DNA of 21,266 nt, taken from a virus. Lineage: Duplodnaviria; Heunggongvirae; Uroviricota; Caudoviricetes. The notes below the pieces were generated by a model. That model was given only the letters and a program-made list of their open reading frames with translations, searched no databases and was not told the DNA's origin. The DNA lies in IMG/VR virus record IMGVR_UViG_2740892113_000010, one strand, 5' to 3'. This document shows positions 3,597 to 20,345 of the stretch, one piece after another. A program made the translations under genes and the position numbers. Numbering within the stretch: the first letter of the stretch is position 1; every line of letters begins with the position of its first letter.

Positions 3597-4601
3597 TAGT
3601 TGATACCCGCTGCCGAGCTGAAAGCTCTATCAATATTATTTCTGTTTCTGGCGGAAAGGATAGCCTTGCTCAATGGCTTGTTGGTATTGAAAGCGGTGTG
3701 CATTTTTTTGCCGGTTTTTGCAGACACCGGGCATGAGCATCCGCAGACAATGGAGTATCTCGATTATCTGGAGAACCGACTCGGGCCGGTTAAACGGGTT
3801 AAAGCTGACTTCTCCCGACAGATTGAAGGTAAGCGCAAGTTTATTGCTGAGAAATGGCCTGTTTCTCTGGTTGAAGAGTGCGGAATGTCTCCGGGGGAAG
3901 CGGCAGAGCGCATCAATTGTGCGCTGGAAATTCTCAAGCCTACTGGTATCCCATTTCTTGATTTGTGCATGTGGAAAGGGCGATTTCCTTCCACTAAAGC
4001 CAGATTTTGCACTTTTGACCTTAAACATGAGCCAGTACGTACTCAGGTCGTGTTACCTGCGCTTAATGAGTTTGATGAGGTAATTAGCTGGCAGGGGATT
4101 CGCGCTCAGGAGTCTCCTGCGCGCGCGGGTCTGCCTGCCTGGGAAGAGGATGCGGACAATACGCCCGGGCTCCATGTATACCGTCCTATTCTGAACTGGA
4201 CGCATGAGGAGGTATTTGCATTTGCAAGACGTCATGGAATTAAACCTAATCCGTTATACCAGCAGGGATGCAGTCGTGTCGGTTGTATGCCCTGCATCCA
4301 CGCCAGAAAGTCTGAATTAGCTGAAATTTTTAGTCGCTGGCCGGAAGAGGTTAAGCGTGTTGCGGAATGGGAGCGACTTGTCGCCGCATGCTCCAGACGC
4401 GGAAATTCTACTTTCTTCCCGTCAACTCATGACCCGCGTCGTGCGGAACGCCGCATTGATATTATTACTGTCGATGCTTACGGAATTGAGTCTTATCGTG
4501 ACTGGGCGATGACCACGCGTGGCGGGGCACAGTTTGATTTGCTGGCTTCGGTGAATGATAAGTCAGTTTGCAGTAGTGTCTATGCCGGTGTATGTGAATG
4601 A
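3593..4601 (+). pseudogene. PP-loop / PAPS-reductase-family protein, interrupted by a frameshift
   Basis: ATG 3593 (ATGA overlap with the upstream stop) opens a frame encoding MIVDTRCRAESSINIISVSGGKDSLAQWLVGIESGVHFF..., i.e. a canonical SGGKDS PP-loop, which stops at 3734-3736. The long ORF (track 3600..4601) is in a different frame and carries the expected downstream motif FADTGHEHPQT. The two frames overlap across a T7 run (3703-3709) and a T5 run (3715-3719). Removing one T restores ...GVHFLPVFADTGHE... Confidence 0.7.
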
Positions 4602-6883
4602 GTCATTCTTTCCAGGAGCAATACACCTGCGTACCTCCGTCAGCATTTGCTGCAGGCACCGGTAAGGCGTTTACCGGTGCTTATGCATGGAACGCGCCAC
4701 GCGAGGCCGTCGGGCGCGAAAGACCCCTTACACGTGACGAGATGCGTCAGGTGCAAGGTGTTTTATCCACGATTAACCGCCTGCCTTACTTTTTGCGCTC
4801 GCTGTTTACTTCACGCTATGACTACATCCGGCGCAATAAAAGCCCGGTGCACGGGTTTTATTTCCTCACATCTACTTTTCAGCGTCGTTTATGGCCGCGC
4901 ATTGAGCGCGTGAATCAGCGCCATGAAATGAACACCGACGCGTCGTTGCTATTTCTGGCAGAGCGTGACCACTATGCGCGCCTGCCTGGAATGAATGACA
5001 AGGAGCTGAAAAAGTTTGCCGCCCGTATCTCATCGCAGCTTTTCATGATGTATGAGGAACTCTGCGATGCATGGGTTGATGCACATGGCGAAAAAGAATC
5101 GCTGTTTACGGATGAGGCGCAGACTCACCTGTATGGTCATGTTGCTGGCGCTGCACGTGCTTTCAATATTTCCCCGCTCTACTGGAAAAAATACCGTAAA
5201 GGACAGATAACCACGAGGCAGGCATATTCTGCCATTGCCCGTCTGTTTAACGATGAGTGGTGGACTCATCAGCTTAAAGGCCAGCGTATGCGCTGGCATG
5301 AGGCGTTACTGATTGCTGTCGGGGAGGTCAATAAAGACCGTTCTCCTTATGCCAGTAAACATGCCATTCGTGATGTGCGTGCGCGCCGCCAGGCAAATCT
5401 GGAGTTTCTTAAATCGTGTGACCTTGAAAACAGGGAAACCGGCGAACGCATCGACCTTATCAGTAAGGTGATGGGCAGTATTTCTAATCCTGAAATTCGC
5501 CGGATGGAGCTGATGAACACCATTGCCGGTATTGAGCGTTACGCCGCCGCAGAGGGTGATGTGGGGATGTTTATCACGCTGACCGCGCCGTCAAAGTATC
5601 ACCCGACACGTCAGGTCGGAAAAGGCGAAAGTAAAACCGTTCAGCTTAATCACGGCTGGAACGATGAGGCATTTAATCCAAAGGATGCGCAGCGTTATCT
5701 CTGCCGTATCTGGAGCCTGATGCGCACGGCATTCAAGGATAATGATTTACAGGTCTACGGTTTGCGAGTCGTCGAGCCACACCACGACGGAACGCCGCAC
5801 TGGCATATGATGCTTTTTTGTAATCCACGCCAGCGTAACCAGATTATTGAAATCATGCGTCGCTACGCGCTCAAAGAGGATGGCGACGAAAGAGGAGCTG
5901 CGCGAAACCGTTTTCAGGCAAAACACCTTAACCGGGGCGGTGCTGCAGGGTATATCGCGAAATACATCTCAAAAAACATCGATGGCTATGCACTGGATGG
6001 TCAGCTCGATAACGATACCGGCAGGCCGCTGAAAGACACTGCCGCGGCTGTTACCGCATGGGCGTCAACGTGGCGCATTCCGCAATTTAAAACGGTTGGC
6101 CTGCCGACAATGGGGGCTTACCGTGAACTACGCAAATTGCCTCGCGGCGTCAGCATTGCTGATGAGTTTGACGAGCGCGTCGAGGCTGCACGCGCCGCTG
6201 CAGACAGTGGTGATTTTGCGTTGTATATCAGCGCGCAGGGCGGGGCAAATGTCCCGCGCGATTGTCAGACTGTCAGGGTCGCCCGTAGCCCGTCGGATGA
6301 CGTTAACGAGTACGAGGAAGAAGTCGAGAGAGTGGTCGGCATTTACGCGCCGCATCTCGGCGCGCGTCATATTCATATCACCAGAACGACGGACTGGCGC
6401 ATTGTTCCGAAAGTGCCGGTCGTTGAGCCTTTGACTTTAAAAAGCGGCATCGCCGCGCCTCGGAGTCCTGTCAATAACTGTGGAAAGCTCACCGGTGGTG
6501 ATACTTCGTTACCGGCTCCCACACCTTCTGAGCACGCCGCAGCAGTGCTTAATCTGGTAGATGACGGTGTTATCGAATGGAATGACCCGGAGGTCGTGAG
6601 GGCGCTCAGAGGTGCATTAAAACACGGCCTGAGAAGACCAAACCGTCAGCAAAGAAACGGAAGCCCGTTAAAACCGCATGAAATAGCGCCATCGGCCAGA
6701 CTGACCCGGTCTGAACGATTGCAAATCACCCGTATCCGCGTTGACCTTGCTCAGAACGGTATCAGGCCGCAGCGATGGGAGCTTGAGGCGCTGGCGCGTG
6801 GCGCGACCGTAAATTATGACGGGAAAAAATTCACGTATCCGGTCGCTGATGAGTGGTCGGGATTCTGGCATCAATTTGAGTAA
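4598..6883 (+). CDS. A: Rolling-circle replication initiator endonuclease, P2 gpA-like (761 aa)
   Basis: 761 aa, as recalled for P2 gpA. HUH-type motif (TPHWHMMLF) and tyrosines in YIAKYISK. ATGA overlap with the upstream gene. Confidence 0.93.
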   Translation: MSHSFQEQYTCVPPSAFAAGTGKAFTGAYAWNAPREAVGRERPLTRDEMRQVQGVLSTINRLPYFLRSLFTSRYDYIRRNKSPVHGFYFLTSTFQRRLWPRIERVNQRHEMNTDASLLFLAERDHYARLPGMNDKELKKFAARISSQLFMMYEELCDAWVDAHGEKESLFTDEAQTHLYGHVAGAARAFNISPLYWKKYRKGQITTRQAYSAIARLFNDEWWTHQLKGQRMRWHEALLIAVGEVNKDRSPYASKHAIRDVRARRQANLEFLKSCDLENRETGERIDLISKVMGSISNPEIRRMELMNTIAGIERYAAAEGDVGMFITLTAPSKYHPTRQVGKGESKTVQLNHGWNDEAFNPKDAQRYLCRIWSLMRTAFKDNDLQVYGLRVVEPHHDGTPHWHMMLFCNPRQRNQIIEIMRRYALKEDGDERGAARNRFQAKHLNRGGAAGYIAKYISKNIDGYALDGQLDNDTGRPLKDTAAAVTAWASTWRIPQFKTVGLPTMGAYRELRKLPRGVSIADEFDERVEAARAAADSGDFALYISAQGGANVPRDCQTVRVARSPSDDVNEYEEEVERVVGIYAPHLGARHIHITRTTDWRIVPKVPVVEPLTLKSGIAAPRSPVNNCGKLTGGDTSLPAPTPSEHAAAVLNLVDDGVIEWNDPEVVRALRGALKHGLRRPNRQQRNGSPLKPHEIAPSARLTRSERLQITRIRVDLAQNGIRPQRWELEALARGATVNYDGKKFTYPVADEWSGFWHQFE

Positions 6884-6972
6884 GGATCTCATCTATACAG
6901 TATAAGTAGTTTTGACTGTAATTGATTGTTTTTTATATGGTTGCATGCATTAAATCTACGTCAATATCATTA

Positions 6973-6981
6973 TGTTATAAT
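6973..6981 (+). promoter_or_regulatory. Candidate extended -10 promoter (TGtTATAAT) for the cargo operon
   Basis: TG-n-TATAAT read at 6973-6981, about 30 bp upstream of ATG 7010 in an AT-rich leader. An alternative TTGACT (6912-6917), 16 bp, TATATG pair lies further upstream. Confidence 0.35.
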
Positions 6982-7009
6982 GCATTACTTAAAAATGTTG
7001 GAGATAAAA

Positions 7010-7201
7010 ATGTTAAAGCCTGCAGATGTTGTTTGTTTGAAAAGCGGTGGATTTAAAATGACTGTATCTGACTCTACTGAAACTCATGCTAAATGTATTT
7101 GGCATGATAAAGAAGGAGTTTTGCACGAGGAGTCATTCTCCATTGATTTACTGGAAATAGCAGAGAGTAAAAGTGGTATGCTTTGTCGTCCACGTAAGTG
7201 A
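7010..7201 (+). CDS. Small DUF2158 / YodC-like protein (63 aa)
   Basis: ATG 7010 with SD GGAG (7000-7003, 6-nt spacer). The ORF-track start at 6926 is a TTG with no SD. Motif DVVCLKSGGFKMTV...CIWHD resembles the conserved core I recall for the YodC/DUF2158 family. AT-rich codon usage. Confidence 0.6.
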   Translation: MLKPADVVCLKSGGFKMTVSDSTETHAKCIWHDKEGVLHEESFSIDLLEIAESKSGMLCRPRK

Positions 7202-7228
7202 ATCATAATAAAATTCACGGGGGAAAGT

Positions 7229-7909
7229 ATGAAACAATACAGCGAATTAGAAAACAATGTTAAGAGATTCATTGTTGAGCATGAAAAAGGGATTTCTATT
7301 GATGATATTCATCATAAGTTCCGGATGAAGGATGGTCAGAATCGCAAGATGGCAGATTATCTTATTGATAATAAAAAGATAATTTTGGAGATGAAAAGTC
7401 TTTTTTCTGACAGGGTCAAGAATGTCAATGATAAACTGAATGAGTTGGTTAAAACTGATAGTTGGCTTGCAAAAAACTGGCATGGTGCTATTCATTTAGA
7501 AGAGTTGATAAAAAGACACCCAGACTCAAAGCGATTTAGAAATGATATAATGAACTTTGCTTATGAAAATATTAAAACAAAGATAGTTAAGGAAGCTAAT
7601 AAGCAAATAAATGCAACAAAGGATGTTTTGGATTTAAATGACTCGATTGGCGGGTTGATTTTGTTAAATGATAATGTCTTTTCACATGAGTCTAATTATT
7701 TGTCAGATGAAATATTATATTTGCTAGGCACAAAGAGATATTCGAGTGTTGAGTTTGTGGTTTATATTGCAAAATTGATTGATAAACAGGTTGATGTTTG
7801 TGTGCTACTTGACAGTCAATCTAAAAATAAAAATTATATTGAATGGTATATGAATAATGTTTTTTTATTGAACTGGGCGTCTTTTAATAAATATGCAATA
7901 AAGATGTAG
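7229..7909 (+). CDS. Hypothetical protein, 226 aa (cargo, unknown function)
   Basis: Clean ORF 27 bp downstream of the YodC-like gene on the same strand, G-rich SD (GGGGGAAAG). Strongly AT-rich, Lys/Asn/Ile-rich. No Walker A or other recognisable catalytic motif. Confidence 0.7.
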   Translation: MKQYSELENNVKRFIVEHEKGISIDDIHHKFRMKDGQNRKMADYLIDNKKIILEMKSLFSDRVKNVNDKLNELVKTDSWLAKNWHGAIHLEELIKRHPDSKRFRNDIMNFAYENIKTKIVKEANKQINATKDVLDLNDSIGGLILLNDNVFSHESNYLSDEILYLLGTKRYSSVEFVVYIAKLIDKQVDVCVLLDSQSKNKNYIEWYMNNVFLLNWASFNKYAIKM

Positions 7910-8228
7910 TGGTGTGGATGGATATGAAATGAGTCAACCAAGATGCACCTTGGTCAGTAATCTCATGTGAGATACCACATATAACACCAAAAGTGTCAGG
8001 TTGATGGCCATTGTTCACCGTTTACAGCAGATTATGGTCAACGAAAATCTGACGCCTGACGAGCTGGTCGGGTGTGCCGAAATAGTCTGGGATAATTACG
8101 GGCGGTTTAACTATATCGGTCAGTCCAGAGTTGCGCCACCACCACGCAGACGATAGAGAACGCCGCCAGTCGTGAAACTTGTTTTCAGGCTGGCGGAGTT
8201 GAACAACGAGCGAAGTGAGGCGTTAGCA

Positions 8229-9170
8229 TTAAGTTAATTTTAATGAATGGTACTCTATCGAGCTGATTGTAGATGCGATATATTTACGATCATTTACAGA
8301 GAGTATTGCCGCTAGTAGACGACATACCAGAGCCTGCATTTGTAGCAATATATCGCTACCATATTGACAATCATTGATACTAGAGAAACCAAGCGGTTGC
8401 CCATTAAAAATGGCTTCATGAAAATTATCATTGCGTATAACTGAAACATTACATTCATCTGTTGCCCATGACGGGATTTTTACACCGTAATTTTCGCACA
8501 TCCAATATACTCTATTTTGATGAGATGGTTTTTTCTCTTTAATGACTTTATCCCTTTCATCCCATGCTATAGCAAAACAGCAATCAAGAGCCATATAAAG
8601 ATACTGGAATTTCTCAAAGGAAAGGTATAGTGGGTTATGTGACAGGAATAGGGAGTGTATCACCGCAGCTATTCTTTTAATGGAGCGATCATCTTTTTGT
8701 TTGTCTTTTATATAGTTAAGTGCTAGCTCTATTACTTCTTTTTCAGAGCATCCAACGAGAATAAAGTCGGTTAACTTAGTGGGCTTGATAGTGGTTGCAT
8801 CAAGAAAACCAGCGTCAGTGGTTGTCAATCTTATACCCTTGAAAAAAGAGAGGCACCACACAACAAAGTTGAGAGTTTCTAACGAGGATGTGTTTTTTAA
8901 TTTTAGTGTGTGCGTTTTGGGCATGCCGAATACTCGGTAACTATAAGGCATTGTGCATGTGTCACCATTAAGGTTATATACCTTTCGATTCCCAGGGTAT
9001 ATCCAACCATTAACAACGTTTTTATCATTGTTAATACGTTCCACGTTCTCAATAAGACCGGGTAAAGTACGCAAAGAAAATTGTTCAGTCTCAATGTTAA
9101 CTTCTACTGGATAGTATCCAAACTCCGAAATAATCTCATTTGGTTGCTGTTCGTCAACTTCACCTTGCAT
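8229..9170 (-). CDS. Hypothetical protein, 313 aa (cargo, unknown function)
   Basis: Minus-strand ORF convergent with the 226-aa gene. SD GGAGA 5 nt upstream of the ATG (complement of 9168-9170). AT-rich. No P-loop, so not an Old-type ATPase. Confidence 0.7.
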   Translation of the reverse strand: MQGEVDEQQPNEIISEFGYYPVEVNIETEQFSLRTLPGLIENVERINNDKNVVNGWIYPGNRKVYNLNGDTCTMPYSYRVFGMPKTHTLKLKNTSSLETLNFVVWCLSFFKGIRLTTTDAGFLDATTIKPTKLTDFILVGCSEKEVIELALNYIKDKQKDDRSIKRIAAVIHSLFLSHNPLYLSFEKFQYLYMALDCCFAIAWDERDKVIKEKKPSHQNRVYWMCENYGVKIPSWATDECNVSVIRNDNFHEAIFNGQPLGFSSINDCQYGSDILLQMQALVCRLLAAILSVNDRKYIASTISSIEYHSLKLT

Positions 9171-9408
9171 AACTTTCTCCGTTCAAAAACAGGCACGATA
9201 ATTCTCGTAAGCCTATCATGTTCGCAAAGTATCCATACCTGTGGATTTTGTAAATTTAAGTTGATTTGTCATTAAATAAGCCGTTGCATGCAACAAGTGA
9301 ATGTTTTTGCATGCGTCGGGGATGTCCGTTCAGGCTGCGTGCGGTCAGGACTGGTGCGGATCCATAGTATCTATGCAACTGCATTAAAACCGCCCCATGA
9401 AGCGGGCG

Positions 9409-9427
9409 GGCGAGGCGGGGAAAGCAC
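9409..9427. other. cos site core, P2-type 19-nt cohesive-end sequence GGCGAGGCGGGGAAAGCAC
   Basis: Exact string read at 9409-9427 in the GC-rich spacer between the cargo island and the portal gene Q. It matches the P2/P4 cohesive-end sequence as I recall it (from memory) and sits where cos is expected, next to Q. Confidence 0.6.
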
Positions 9428-9561
9428 TGCGCGCTGGCGGTGGTGCTGATTTTATTTTTTCAGCGTCTCAGCGCGTCGTGATGGCATTTAGTCGGCCTGC
9501 TGGGGCGTTGGTGTGTCTGCGGGGTGTTTTGTGCGGTGGTGAGGGCGTGATGACGGGATGT

Positions 9562-9583
9562 AAAAAAGCCGCCCGCAGGCGGC
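9562..9583 (-). terminator. Intrinsic terminator downstream of Q (leftward P-Q operon)
   Basis: On the minus strand: GCCGCC-TGCG-GGCGGC hairpin followed by TTTTTT, 5 nt past the Q stop codon. Confidence 0.6.
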
Positions 9584-9588
9584 GATGT

Positions 9589-10623
9589 TCAGCCGTTGTC
9601 AGTGTCAAGTGAGTAGTTTTTAAAGCGGATGACCTCCTGACCGAGCCAGTCGTTTATCTCGCGGATCCTGTCCTGTAACGGGATAAGCTCATTGCGGACA
9701 AAGACCTTTGCCACTTTCTCAATATCACCCAGCGACCCGACGTTCTCCGGCTTGCCACCCATCAACTGAAAGGGGATGCGGTGCGCGTCCAGCAGGTCAG
9801 CGGCGCTGGCTTTTTTGATATTAAAAAAATCGTCCTTCGTCGCCACTTCACTGAGGGGGATAATTTTAATGCCGTCGGCTTTCCCCTGTGGGGCATAGAG
9901 AAACAGATTTTTAAAGTTATTGCGGCCTTTCGACTTCACCATGTTTTCGCGAAGCATTTCGATATCGTTGCGATCCTGCACGGCATCGGTGACGTACATG
10001 ATGTATCCAGCATGTGCGCCATTTTCGTAATACTTGCGGCGGAACAGCGTGGCCGACTCATTCAGCCAGGCAGAGTTAAGGGCGCTGAGATATTCCGGCA
10101 GGCCGTACAGCTCCTGATTAATATCCGGCTCCAGCAGGTGAAACACGGAGCCGGACGCGAAGGCTGTCGGCTCGTTGAAGGACGGCACCCACCAGTAAAC
10201 ATCCTCCTCCACGCCACGGCGGGTATATTTTGCCGGTGAGGTTTCCAGCCTGATAACCTTACCGGTGGTGCTGTAACGCTTTTCCAGAAACGCATTACCG
10301 AACACCAGAAAATCCAGCACAAAGCGGCTGAAATCCTGCTGGGAAAGCCACGGGTGCGGAATAAACGTTGAAGCCAGAATATTACGTTTGACGTAAATCG
10401 GTGAGCTGTGATGTACGGCAGCACGCAGGCTTTTTGCCAGACCGGTAAAGCTGACCGGTGGCTCATACCATCTGCCGTTACTGATGCACTCGACGTAATC
10501 CAGAATGTCACGGCGGTCGAGTACCGGCACCGGCTCACCAAAGGTGAATGCCTCCATTTTCGGGGCGCTGGCGGTCATTGTTTTCACCGCAGGTTGCGGT
10601 GTTTTCCCTTTTTTCTTGCTCAT
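9589..10623 (-). CDS. Q: Portal protein, P2 gpQ-like (344 aa)
   Basis: 344 aa, next to cos, start overlapping the stop of P; order and length as in P2. Confidence 0.93.
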   Translation of the reverse strand: MSKKKGKTPQPAVKTMTASAPKMEAFTFGEPVPVLDRRDILDYVECISNGRWYEPPVSFTGLAKSLRAAVHHSSPIYVKRNILASTFIPHPWLSQQDFSRFVLDFLVFGNAFLEKRYSTTGKVIRLETSPAKYTRRGVEEDVYWWVPSFNEPTAFASGSVFHLLEPDINQELYGLPEYLSALNSAWLNESATLFRRKYYENGAHAGYIMYVTDAVQDRNDIEMLRENMVKSKGRNNFKNLFLYAPQGKADGIKIIPLSEVATKDDFFNIKKASAADLLDAHRIPFQLMGGKPENVGSLGDIEKVAKVFVRNELIPLQDRIREINDWLGQEVIRFKNYSLDTDNG

Positions 10624-18798: not shown

Positions 18799-18835
18799 TA
18801 AACATTGAGCGGCCGTGCTGGTCGCTCAATGTTTA
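18799..18835. repeat. Perfect inverted repeat (12-13 bp arms, 11-nt loop) between S and the antisense cargo gene
   Basis: AAACATTGAGCG (18800-18811) and CGCTCAATGTTT (18823-18834) are exact reverse complements, extendable by one bp. Lies between the stops of the convergent S and 261-aa genes. Not followed by a U-run on either strand. Confidence 0.55.
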
Positions 18836-18840
18836 GAGGT

Positions 18841-19626
18841 TTATGAGTGGTTTTTATTTGATGCTTTGTATTCTAAAACCTTCTTATTGGCGTAAAGGAA
18901 TTTTGTGTATGACAGGAATATAAATAGACCTGAAATGAAATAGATTAGGGATATTATTAATAATGTTTTTCTGTGGCTGTTATTATCTTTAATCTCCTGA
19001 CTTAACCATTCGGAGTCCTCCTCGTTTAGCTGTAAGAGCTTATTGCAGGCGATTGCAGGAAGTGTGTCTGTTACAAAAGTGTTCTGCAGTCTCTTGCAAT
19101 CGGCAATGCTAAAAGCTTTATAGAACTTATCTGTTTTATTGTCGGAGAACAAAAGAACCTTGTCATTATAAACATGGTACATCATATTTTTATATGGTAT
19201 GGCTATGGCATCCTCTACTATGGCAGATTGCTCGTTGTGTATGCAACATGCGAAGATAATATAAAGAATTCCGGCCAGGACTGCACTCATTGTTTTTGTG
19301 ATGCATGGCGGTTCTGTTATGTCTCCCCAGAAGCGAGTAAGGAAAAAATCCGATGTTTTTAGTTTTCCATCAATCAGCCCCTGCTGTATCATTCTCACAT
19401 CTTCGATGCCTGATACATTGATTCCGTTAAGTATTTTAAATAGTTGAATGTCGCGCCACTCGCGGTCCAGTCTTTTTAATTTTTTGTCTGAATATCCAAA
19501 TTTGAAATAATGTGCAATAAGCCTCATAAGGTTACTTTTACCAAAGCTAAAAAATGCTAATACTGCAAAGACCAAAAGATACAAAACGATTAGCTCCCAC
19601 ACATTAGTCACATTATAGCTGACCAT
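18841..19626 (-). CDS. Membrane protein, 261 aa, three hydrophobic segments (cargo between S and V)
   Basis: Minus-strand ORF with a strong SD (AAGGAGAG, 6-nt spacer to the ATG at 19626). Hydrophobic stretches near residues 10-28, 112-129 and 221-240. AT-rich, unlike the flanking tail genes. Confidence 0.72.
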   Translation of the reverse strand: MVSYNVTNVWELIVLYLLVFAVLAFFSFGKSNLMRLIAHYFKFGYSDKKLKRLDREWRDIQLFKILNGINVSGIEDVRMIQQGLIDGKLKTSDFFLTRFWGDITEPPCITKTMSAVLAGILYIIFACCIHNEQSAIVEDAIAIPYKNMMYHVYNDKVLLFSDNKTDKFYKAFSIADCKRLQNTFVTDTLPAIACNKLLQLNEEDSEWLSQEIKDNNSHRKTLLIISLIYFISGLFIFLSYTKFLYANKKVLEYKASNKNHS

Positions 19627-19709
19627 TACGCTCTCCTTGAATGTTGTCTGGTGGTTCTACAAATGAATCCAGATAGCATAACTTTTATATATTGTGCAAT
19701 CTCACATGC

Positions 19710-20345
19710 ATGGACACTCTCGCAAATATTCAGGAACTCGCGCGCGCACTGCGCAACATGATTCGTACCGGCATTATCGTTGAAACCGACCTTAACGCCG
19801 GTCGCTGCCGTGTGCAGACCGGCGGCATGTGCACCGACTGGCTTCAGTGGCTGACCCATCGCGCCGGACGTTCGCGCACATGGTGGGCACCTTCCGTGGG
19901 GGAACAGGTGCTGATTCTGGCCGTGGGCGGTGAACTCGACACGGCGTTCGTTCTGCCGGGGATTTATTCCGGCGATAACCCTGCGCCGTCTGCGTCGGCG
20001 GATGCCCTGCATATCCGTTTCCCTGACGGGGCGGTGATTGAGTATGAACCCGAAACCAGTGCGCTTACGGTAAGCGGAATTAAAACGGCCAGCGTGACGG
20101 CTTCTGATTCTGTTACTGCCACGGTGCCGGTGGTCATGGTGAAAGCATCAACCCGCATCACTCTGGACACGCCGGAGGTGGTCTGCACAAACAAGCTGAT
20201 CACCGGCACGCTGGAAGTGCAGAAGGGCGGGACGATGCGCGGCAACATTGAACACACCGGCGGTGAACTCTCATCAAACGGTAAGGTACTGCATACCCAT
20301 AAACACCCCGGCGACAGCGGCGGCACAACCGGGAGTCCTTTATGA
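19710..20345 (+). CDS. V: Baseplate spike / assembly protein, P2 gpV-like (211 aa)
   Basis: ORF track 19692..20345 starts at TTG; ATG 19710 (MDTLANIQELARAL...) gives 211 aa as in P2 gpV. No obvious SD immediately upstream. Confidence 0.88.
   Translation: MDTLANIQELARALRNMIRTGIIVETDLNAGRCRVQTGGMCTDWLQWLTHRAGRSRTWWAPSVGEQVLILAVGGELDTAFVLPGIYSGDNPAPSASADALHIRFPDGAVIEYEPETSALTVSGIKTASVTASDSVTATVPVVMVKASTRITLDTPEVVCTNKLITGTLEVQKGGTMRGNIEHTGGELSSNGKVLHTHKHPGDSGGTTGSPL

Follow-up and report, generated by a model that had tools for sequence, protein, structure and literature searches.

Phage P2 keeps exchangeable, AT-rich, foreign-looking cargo in the slot between gene A and the cohesive-end (cos) site, the tin-old (TO) region, where conserved flanks enclose genes that exclude other phages in the tested cases (PMC9122126; PMC9519451). 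As an initial annotation of the DNA studied here had noted, this gpA-gpQ slot is a documented P2 defense hotspot (PMC9122126; PMC9519451); Vassallo 2022 cite Odegrip 2006 for the variable locus (PMC9519451), and in the equivalent hotspot of P4 six of eight randomly chosen loci of unknown function gave phage protection (PMC13586616). We analyzed this slot in IMG/VR record IMGVR_UViG_2740892113_000010, a stretch of 21,266 nucleotides (hereafter the window) that is a P2-like prophage of Escherichia coli. Its position and its conserved flanks are those of the TO region, but its proteins are unrelated to Tin, Old, and orf91, and its cargo also displaces orf91/DUF3850 on the A side of a conserved block located between the two landmarks. 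We propose that the slot holds two independent nuclease-based anti-phage or exclusion genes, the open reading frames (ORFs) ORF226 and ORF313, and we give this reading a probability of roughly 0.6.

The same locus, with the same gene order and lengths, has been deposited for P2-EC67 (GenBank AM157369, "Bacteriophage P2-EC67 proviral ORF226 and ORF313"), to which the stretch is 92.9% identical. That record annotates ORF73, ORF226, and ORF313, all as hypothetical, and gives no function. The stretch is 99.6% identical in phage vB_EcoM-720R8, and, of 5426 complete E. coli genomes, 27 have the full locus, in many cases at 100% identity. RefSeq likewise annotates the three genes in the identical DNA of E. 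coli strain 4/0, and the exact proteins appear in Table S5A of Rousset 2022 under "hypothetical x3 + DUF2158" (WP_032179103, WP_072164333, WP_023136039, and WP_001547483; PMC9122126). The slot, its AT-rich cargo, and this allele are already known, and the high novelty implied by the initial annotation is overstated, given the P2-EC67 entry and the 2022 hotspot catalogue, although we found no functional test. In the literature and tools searched, we found neither the assignment of the two proteins as nucleases, nor the division of the cargo into two units, nor any account of how widespread the ORF313 family is. ORF226 and ORF313 appear to be known kinds of defense effector, but they belong to unmodeled families, and the N-terminal domain of ORF313 is new.

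Two types of described effector offer a comparison at the protein level. ApeA, a single-protein HEPN defense (Gao 2020), has about 580 residues, is almost entirely helical, forms decamers or dodecamers, and consists of three domains, namely N-terminal, Mid, and split HEPN. The arginine of the Rx4H motif in its C-terminal HEPN ribonuclease is essential, and its non-catalytic N-terminal parts sense infection by means of a ligand pocket, the targets of cleavage being tRNA or phage RNA (bioRxiv 10.64898/2026.01.26.701840, 10.64898/2026.03.20.713152). The second type comprises effectors with the restriction-endonuclease fold, such as NucC, Cap4, and type II restriction endonucleases (e.g. BsmI). 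Remote PD-(D/E)xK similarity was noted in many of the new E. coli systems of Vassallo 2022, several of which lie in this P2 hotspot (PMC9519451).

Two cargo slots separated by a conserved block

The left landmark of the hotspot is gene A, an ORF of 761 amino acids (4598-6883, plus strand) with its stop at 6883. The right-hand landmark is the P2 cos core GGCGAGGCGGGGAAAGCAC at 9409-9427 (plus strand), 2.5 kb past gene A, an exact match of which none is expected by chance. The same cos sequence is present in cloned P2 and P4 fragments (PMC9122126 Table S2), and portal and terminase genes lie beyond cos on the minus strand. The initial annotation had placed both landmarks correctly, and had described the DNA between them as one abruptly AT-rich island with long A/T runs, returning to GC-rich DNA around 9300. 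The long runs are indeed concentrated here: the window has 28 A/T-only runs of at least 10 nucleotides, and 10 of these fall in the region under study, which makes up 11% of its length. The change in guanine-plus-cytosine (GC) content also stands, since it is 0.535 in gene A (4598-6883), 0.318 in 6884-7968, 0.372 in 8227-9255, and 0.556 in the right flank (9256-9588), the mean of 500-nucleotide windows outside the region being 0.528 (standard deviation 0.06). The island is not continuous, however, but interrupted by a block at 7969-8226 with a GC content of 0.504.

This block of about 260 bp matches P2, Wphi, P22H4, and many other peduoviruses at 89-92%, as nothing else in 6884-9400 does, and its mean column identity is 88% in an alignment of six phages. 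Base composition and comparison with P2-like phages place the boundaries of the AT-rich cargo at 6884-7968 for slot 1 (plus strand), between the stop of gene A and the conserved block, and at 8227-9255 for slot 2 (minus strand), on the cos side of the block. The right conserved flank begins near 9256, and 9256-9300 is 97.8% conserved in genomes without ORF313. P2, Wphi, and YpM46 share the order A, orf91/DUF3850, conserved block, variable cargo, and cos. In the window, a DUF2158 gene and ORF226 stand in place of orf91/DUF3850 in slot 1, and ORF313 occupies slot 2, a position filled by methyltransferase cargo in Wphi and, on the P2 map, by tin and old. The conserved block is probably the recombination junction between the two slots.

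The 63-residue YodC-like gene, the 226-residue gene, and the convergent 313-residue gene lie where the initial annotation had put them, as the Pfam match to DUF2158 and the RefSeq annotation of strain 4/0 show. They are not the only contents of the region, which also includes a fourth small ORF (8001-8156) and a hairpin that had gone unlisted, and they do not form the single three-gene module that had been proposed, being two independently assorting units split by the conserved core block. Rfam and repeat scans of 6700-9700 gave chance-level matches only.

ORF313, a predicted HEPN ribonuclease

ORF313 (8229-9170, minus strand; phrog_5937) is a single gene whose product is predicted to be a HEPN ribonuclease with a novel N-terminal domain. 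HEPN proteins are defined by an Rx4-6H motif in which a polar residue (N, D, or H) directly follows the arginine (PMC3710099). The translation of 8418-8435 (minus strand) gives the putative catalytic motif RNDNFH (R246-N247-x3-H251) followed by the invariant E252, and R246-N247-D-N-F-H251 shows both the spacing and the polar residue of this definition. The polar positions that never vary among 39 sequences, the most distant of them 43% identical, include R246, N247, H251, and E252. The AlphaFold (AF2) model (predicted local distance difference test, pLDDT, 84.7; predicted template modeling score, pTM, 0.85) is beta-rich in its N-terminal part and helical in its C-terminal part, with the motif at the start of helix 242-255. 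ORF313 is predicted to act as a stand-alone HEPN ribonuclease, in which the helical bundle of residues 143-300 (8271-8744, minus strand) would be the HEPN domain. The beta-rich domain of residues 13-140 (8751-9134, minus strand) is a putative sensor or autoinhibitory domain, whose invariant aromatic residues include F17, Y20, F31, W56, Y58, F81, F102, and W105. In the region upstream of the gene (9171-9275, minus strand), a GGAG occurs 6 nucleotides before the ATG, and the consensus match ATGACA-16-CAAAAT (9272-9245, minus strand) is a promoter-like site.

One ORF313 homologue bears the UniRef name "Apea-like HEPN domain-containing protein", which was the lead toward ApeA. Identity with ApeA is ruled out by length, architecture, and the absence of a hidden Markov model (HMM) match, as the PADLOC ApeA model did not match ORF313 at E values up to 1 and Pfam HEPN_Apea (PF18739) matched neither ORF313 nor any of 38 homologues. 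Both are single genes, but the ORF313 protein has 313 residues, of which the N-terminal 140 are beta-rich. By analogy, ApeA offers the best available model for the way in which ORF313 might work. ORF313 has no sequence similarity to the minimal HEPN toxins of the HepT/MNT type, to AbiV, or to Tha of S. aureus prophages, and differs further in having no MNT-type antitoxin neighbor and in carrying an extra domain of 140 residues. A Foldseek search of ORF313 against the PDB returned nothing below E = 1, and a search with the N-terminal domain alone returned truncated copies only, with no alternative fusions. In the PDB profile search, positions 240-280 of the ORF313 family profile aligned with residues 5-45 of E. 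coli NrdB (E ~0.008), a short match that we judged to be due to chance. NrdB is ribonucleotide reductase R2, and the weak match joins the region around the RNxxxH motif to the NrdB N-terminus.

The ORF313 family is broad and uniform in length (about 310-320 residues), and the protein collection contains over 260 clusters of homologues. Relatives were found in 77 species representatives, mostly Gamma-, Beta-, and Alphaproteobacteria, with a few from other phyla. When the flanking ORFs of 73 ORF313 loci were clustered, no conserved partner gene emerged, and the recurrent neighbors reflect only shared integrative and conjugative elements (ICEs) or genus synteny. Pfam annotation of a handful of loci shows several homologues in the company of defense genes. 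In a P. aeruginosa island, the homologue lies beside Gabija. One and the same protein is found in three different Providencia contexts: in one it adjoins a type I restriction-modification system with GmrSD, in another AbiH and TIR within an island bounded by an integrase, and in the third AbiH, PIN_12 lying further upstream. The A. baumannii homologue lies near a PIN_8 gene, and the contexts in Aeromonas, Stenotrophomonas, and P. viridiflava are uninformative.

ORF226 and the DUF2158 gene

Slot 1 begins with a promoter-like site, the consensus match TTGACT-18-TATGGT (6912-6941, plus strand), upstream of the DUF2158 (YodC-like) gene (7010-7201, plus strand; 63 residues; Pfam PF09926, E 4.7e-8; phrog_3261). 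This gene has a GGAG ribosome-binding site 6 nucleotides upstream and ends 27 nucleotides before ORF226 (7229-7909, plus strand; 226 residues), which is predicted to encode a PD-(D/E)xK (restriction-endonuclease-fold) nuclease. The putative catalytic segment is DYLIDNKKIILEMK (7355-7396, plus strand), containing D43 ... E54-M-K56, and none of the residues D43, E54, and K56 varies among 21 sequences reaching down to 20% identity. PD-(D/E)xK proteins have an acidic residue at the start of strand beta-2 and the (D/E)xK motif on beta-3. ORF226 shows this arrangement, D43 adjoining strand 44-46 and E54-M-K56 lying within strand 51-57, and it also has the restriction-endonuclease-like alpha/beta core, with modest fold-match scores. 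ORF226 is accordingly a PD-(D/E)xK nuclease-fold protein, for which nuclease activity is predicted. It shares the D...ExK signature and the core fold with NucC, Cap4, and the type II restriction endonucleases but, in contrast to those effectors, has neither a methyltransferase partner nor a cyclic-nucleotide sensor domain. The D...ExK motif of ORF226 and the Rx4H motif of ORF313 supply the recognizable signatures that the initial annotation had reported as absent.

Close relatives of ORF226 form 26 clusters, all from Enterobacterales, and a full HMM scan returned 346 distant relatives, the closest of which has a weak Pfam match to the DpnII-MboI restriction endonucleases. The ratio of nonsynonymous to synonymous substitution rates (dN/dS) is 0.09 for ORF226 and 0.20 for the DUF2158 gene, the latter in comparison with Citrobacter. 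Three distant relatives, P0163, P0166, and P0182, are longer (600-740 residues) and carry the ORF226-like domain at about residues 350-510. P0166 and P0182 have an N-terminal Mrr_cat restriction-nuclease domain, P0182 also has a C-terminal SEC-C motif, and P0163 has no Pfam match. The pairing with Mrr_cat in P0166 and P0182 suggests that the ORF226-like domain has been reused as a module in larger nucleases. A scan of the genome collection with the ORF226 profile yielded no locus, and PDB sequence searches with ORF226 and the DUF2158 protein found nothing. No PADLOC model matches ORF226; this model set presumably includes those of the PD-T4, PD-T7, and PD-Lambda systems.

Known cargo of the hotspot was also considered for the proteins. 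Old-type nucleases combine an ABC-type ATPase, with its Walker A motif, and a Toprim domain. Such an identity was rejected, because Pfam matches to AAA, SMC, and Toprim are absent from all four ORFs, as are PADLOC matches, in agreement with the initial annotation, which had also refrained from equating any of the proteins with Tin. In a profile comparison with hhalign, the ORF226 family matched Tin with a probability of 0.5%, and BLASTP against Tin gave E values of 0.9 or above (around 1) for all three proteins. Rst_3HP ("hp + hp + hp", Hp1-Hp3 of E. coli E1114; Rousset 2022) is unrelated, with a best BLASTP E of 0.4.

The homologues of ORF226 occur in several settings. Two Citrobacter P2-like architectures have the order A, DUF2158, ORF226 homologue, other cargo, and Q, without ORF313. 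On a Pantoea IncFII plasmid, the homologue stands alone next to the IncFII replication genes. In the P0147 prophage (Logan SRR29733102, 4327-6539), a homologue of 41% identity starts 33 nucleotides after a CI-type repressor (HTH_3 + Peptidase_S24) and is convergent with a DUF4238 gene; a serine recombinase is adjacent, and a BamHI restriction-modification system lies about 3 kb away. The DUF4238 type has been validated as defense (Rst_DUF4238; Rousset 2022, PMC9122126), and the P0147 locus looks like a compact, lysogeny-expressed defense cluster in an unrelated prophage.

The layout of slot 1, a small gene followed after 27 nucleotides by a nuclease-fold gene, resembles that of a type II toxin-antitoxin (TA) system. 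The cargo genes might, then, be selfish addiction or TA-like stabilizers of a prophage or plasmid, with the DUF2158 protein as antitoxin of an ORF226 toxin. This would fit the common occurrence of HEPN and PD-(D/E)xK domains as toxins (PMC3710099), the retention of the DUF2158-ORF226 pair in three P2-like architectures, and the proximity of the Pantoea homologue to replication genes. Nevertheless, the pair is not an obligate two-gene operon, since DUF2158 is missing beside the homologues in Pantoea plasmids and in the P0147 prophage, and no small partner of ORF313 was seen in any of the 73 loci. We regard this explanation as unlikely, and TA function and phage defense in any case often coincide. 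Since DUF2158 is found with ORF226 in P2-like phages only, the partnership is not an obligate one, and the DUF2158 product may instead be an accessory or regulator of ORF226.

Independent assortment and mosaicism

If the three genes formed one cooperative system, in which the DUF2158 protein, an ORF226 deoxyribonuclease, and an ORF313 ribonuclease act together, the two slots would be expected to travel together. In E. coli they do: slot 1 occurs in 27 of the 5426 complete genomes, with an identity never below 98.8%, and all 27 carriers also have some ORF313 allele, even one whose HEPN half is only 68% identical, while most of the 523 genomes matching the conserved block lack ORF313-type cargo. 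Outside these carriers the association breaks down. At least 26 complete E. coli genomes have ORF313 but no slot 1, and in the Yersinia phages YpM46 and VB-YPM-4 it is present (98.7% DNA identity) together with orf91/DUF3850 in place of slot 1. Conversely, in Citrobacter P2-like prophages the DUF2158-ORF226 pair is accompanied in slot 2 by other cargo or by none, and ORF226 is found alone on the Pantoea plasmid and in the P0147 prophage. Moreover, the genes are convergent, with core DNA and its terminator-like hairpin lying between them, the 27 E. coli carriers represent few lineages, and swapping homologous ORF313 alleles is easier than replacement by unrelated cargo. Because the two units assort independently, they are not one three-gene system, and we consider a cooperative function decidedly improbable. 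The linkage in E. coli is read here as the result of descent and easy allele exchange, rather than of functional coupling.

Comparison with P2-EC67 (window 8232-9170 against AM157369 1411-2349) shows that the ORF313 of the window is a mosaic. In slot 1, the two loci are nearly the same, with 99% protein identity for ORF226 and 100% for DUF2158. Within ORF313, the N-terminal domain is 96.5% identical, with a synonymous divergence (dS) of 0.011, whereas the HEPN half is 68% identical, with a dS of 1.15 and a dN/dS of 0.18. This contrast indicates that recombination has introduced about 0.8 kb of divergent sequence, one breakpoint of which falls at the domain boundary of ORF313, in keeping with the chimeras reported to form at these hotspots (PMC13586616). 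The HEPN motif is kept in the 68%-identical allele, and the least conserved stretch between the two proteins is at about residues 196-240.

We put forward, tentatively, a broader and rather doubtful interpretation of these data. ORF313 might found a widespread, uncatalogued family of single-gene HEPN immunity proteins in which the N-terminal domain is a new infection sensor, and in which the HEPN half is swapped at the domain boundary, diversifying or retargeting the effector while the sensor is kept.

The conserved block and its hairpin

The conserved block contains a small ORF (8001-8156, plus strand; 51 residues from a TTG; phrog_11386, E 4e-26), which is part of the phage core and not cargo. 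Several of the substitutions between phages, read from the alignment, are synonymous third-position changes. Wphi has a 1-nucleotide insertion early in this ORF, which suggests that the real start is an internal ATG that would yield about 41 residues. The RefSeq label of the protein, "meiotically up-regulated 80 protein", is an evident misnomer.

Directly 3' of this ORF, a hairpin is predicted at 8162-8197, with a folding energy of -24 kcal/mol (z -3.1) on the plus strand and -19.3 kcal/mol (z -2.6) on the minus strand. Its stem is retained in the divergent P2-EC67 allele despite changes in the loop. The hairpin is likely to be a bidirectional terminator for the two convergent cargo transcripts.

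Proposed function

Defense or exclusion, the role that had been suggested for the locus by the initial annotation, is the most likely function, judging from the nuclease motifs and the defense-gene neighbors of homologues. The picture that we favor is that of two horizontally exchanged cargo units, split by the conserved core block with its terminator-like hairpin at the end. ORF313, whose minus-strand reading frame points away from cos, would be made constitutively in the lysogen, its beta-rich N-terminal domain keeping the enzyme inactive. When another phage infects, the cue perceived by this domain would be either something made by the phage or a by-product of the infection, and its detection would free the Rx4H active site in a HEPN dimer. 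ORF313 would then cut tRNA, mRNA, rRNA, or phage RNA, so that translation stops and the infection is aborted or blocked. ORF226, for its part, may act on incoming phage DNA, or on host DNA as an abortive effector, with the DUF2158 protein as a dispensable accessory or regulator.

Several observations weigh against a defense role. PADLOC 2.0.0, Pfam, and NCBIfam contain no match for ORF226 or ORF313, and both proteins fall in PHROGs families of unknown function. The locus is listed among neither the validated nor the negative systems in the full Table S2 of PMC9122126, and a full-text literature search by protein accessions and PHROG identifiers found no paper. Non-defense cargo, e.g. partition systems, occupies about a quarter of the P2 hotspot loci (PMC9122126). 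The Aeromonas homologue of ORF313 lies among housekeeping genes, beside an AlkZ-like gene, with no obvious defense island. Finally, the terminator is an energy prediction and the promoters are consensus matches.

The presence of the locus in plaque-forming phages such as vB_EcoM-720R8 and YpM46 could also mean that the genes serve the phage's own cycle or counter host defenses, by lytic degradation of host RNA and DNA or by anti-restriction. Nucleases are common tools of phage takeover, and on the Pantoea plasmid the gene could be sitting in a location of the leading-region type. However, most ORF313 homologues are found in non-phage contexts (ICEs, chromosomal islets, and defense islands), both genes are missing from most P2-like phages, and the ORF226 homologue of P0147 directly follows a CI repressor, a position of lysogen-expressed genes. 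We consider such a role very improbable.

That the proteins are catalytically inert or decaying cargo with coincidental motifs is barely credible, even though no family model recognizes them and fold-match scores are modest, because ORF226 and ORF313 are intact in all copies examined and under purifying selection (dN/dS 0.09-0.28), their motif residues are invariant across families reaching 20-43% identity, and P2 and P4 reportedly harbor few defense-gene pseudogenes (PMC13586616).

Other features of the window

A second AT-rich island lies at 18800-20012, where the GC content is about 0.40-0.43 against about 0.57 around it. It contains two minus-strand ORFs, 18841-19626 (261 residues) and 19626-20012 (128 residues), neither of which has a Pfam or PADLOC match. 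The island is placed in an apparent late-gene (probably tail) region and may be another cargo slot. Directly upstream of gene A, an ORF at 3600-4601 has a PAPS-reductase domain (Pfam E 1e-31) and also matches the PADLOC models SspD, BrxP, and DndC; the identical locus in strain 4/0 is a frameshifted pseudogene according to RefSeq.

Implications

P2-like prophages are common in E. coli, with 63 P2 portal proteins encoded by 47 of the 71 strains of one collection (Vassallo 2022, PMC9519451), and no recognizable defense gene is found at this hotspot in about a fifth of P2-like elements (PMC13586616). The locus described here is a concrete, well-delimited example of such a case. Nuclease-like proteins of this kind in the hotspot will not surprise a specialist, and the value of the locus is that of a clean and cheap experimental target. 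If neither gene protects, the result would caution against reading every AT-rich gene at this position as defense. If ORF313 is active, PADLOC misses a HEPN defense family that dozens of proteobacterial species possess, P. aeruginosa, A. baumannii, Klebsiella, and Salmonella among them. The cargo of the P2 hotspot shapes which phages infect a strain, and therefore bears on phage therapy and on the prediction of host range.

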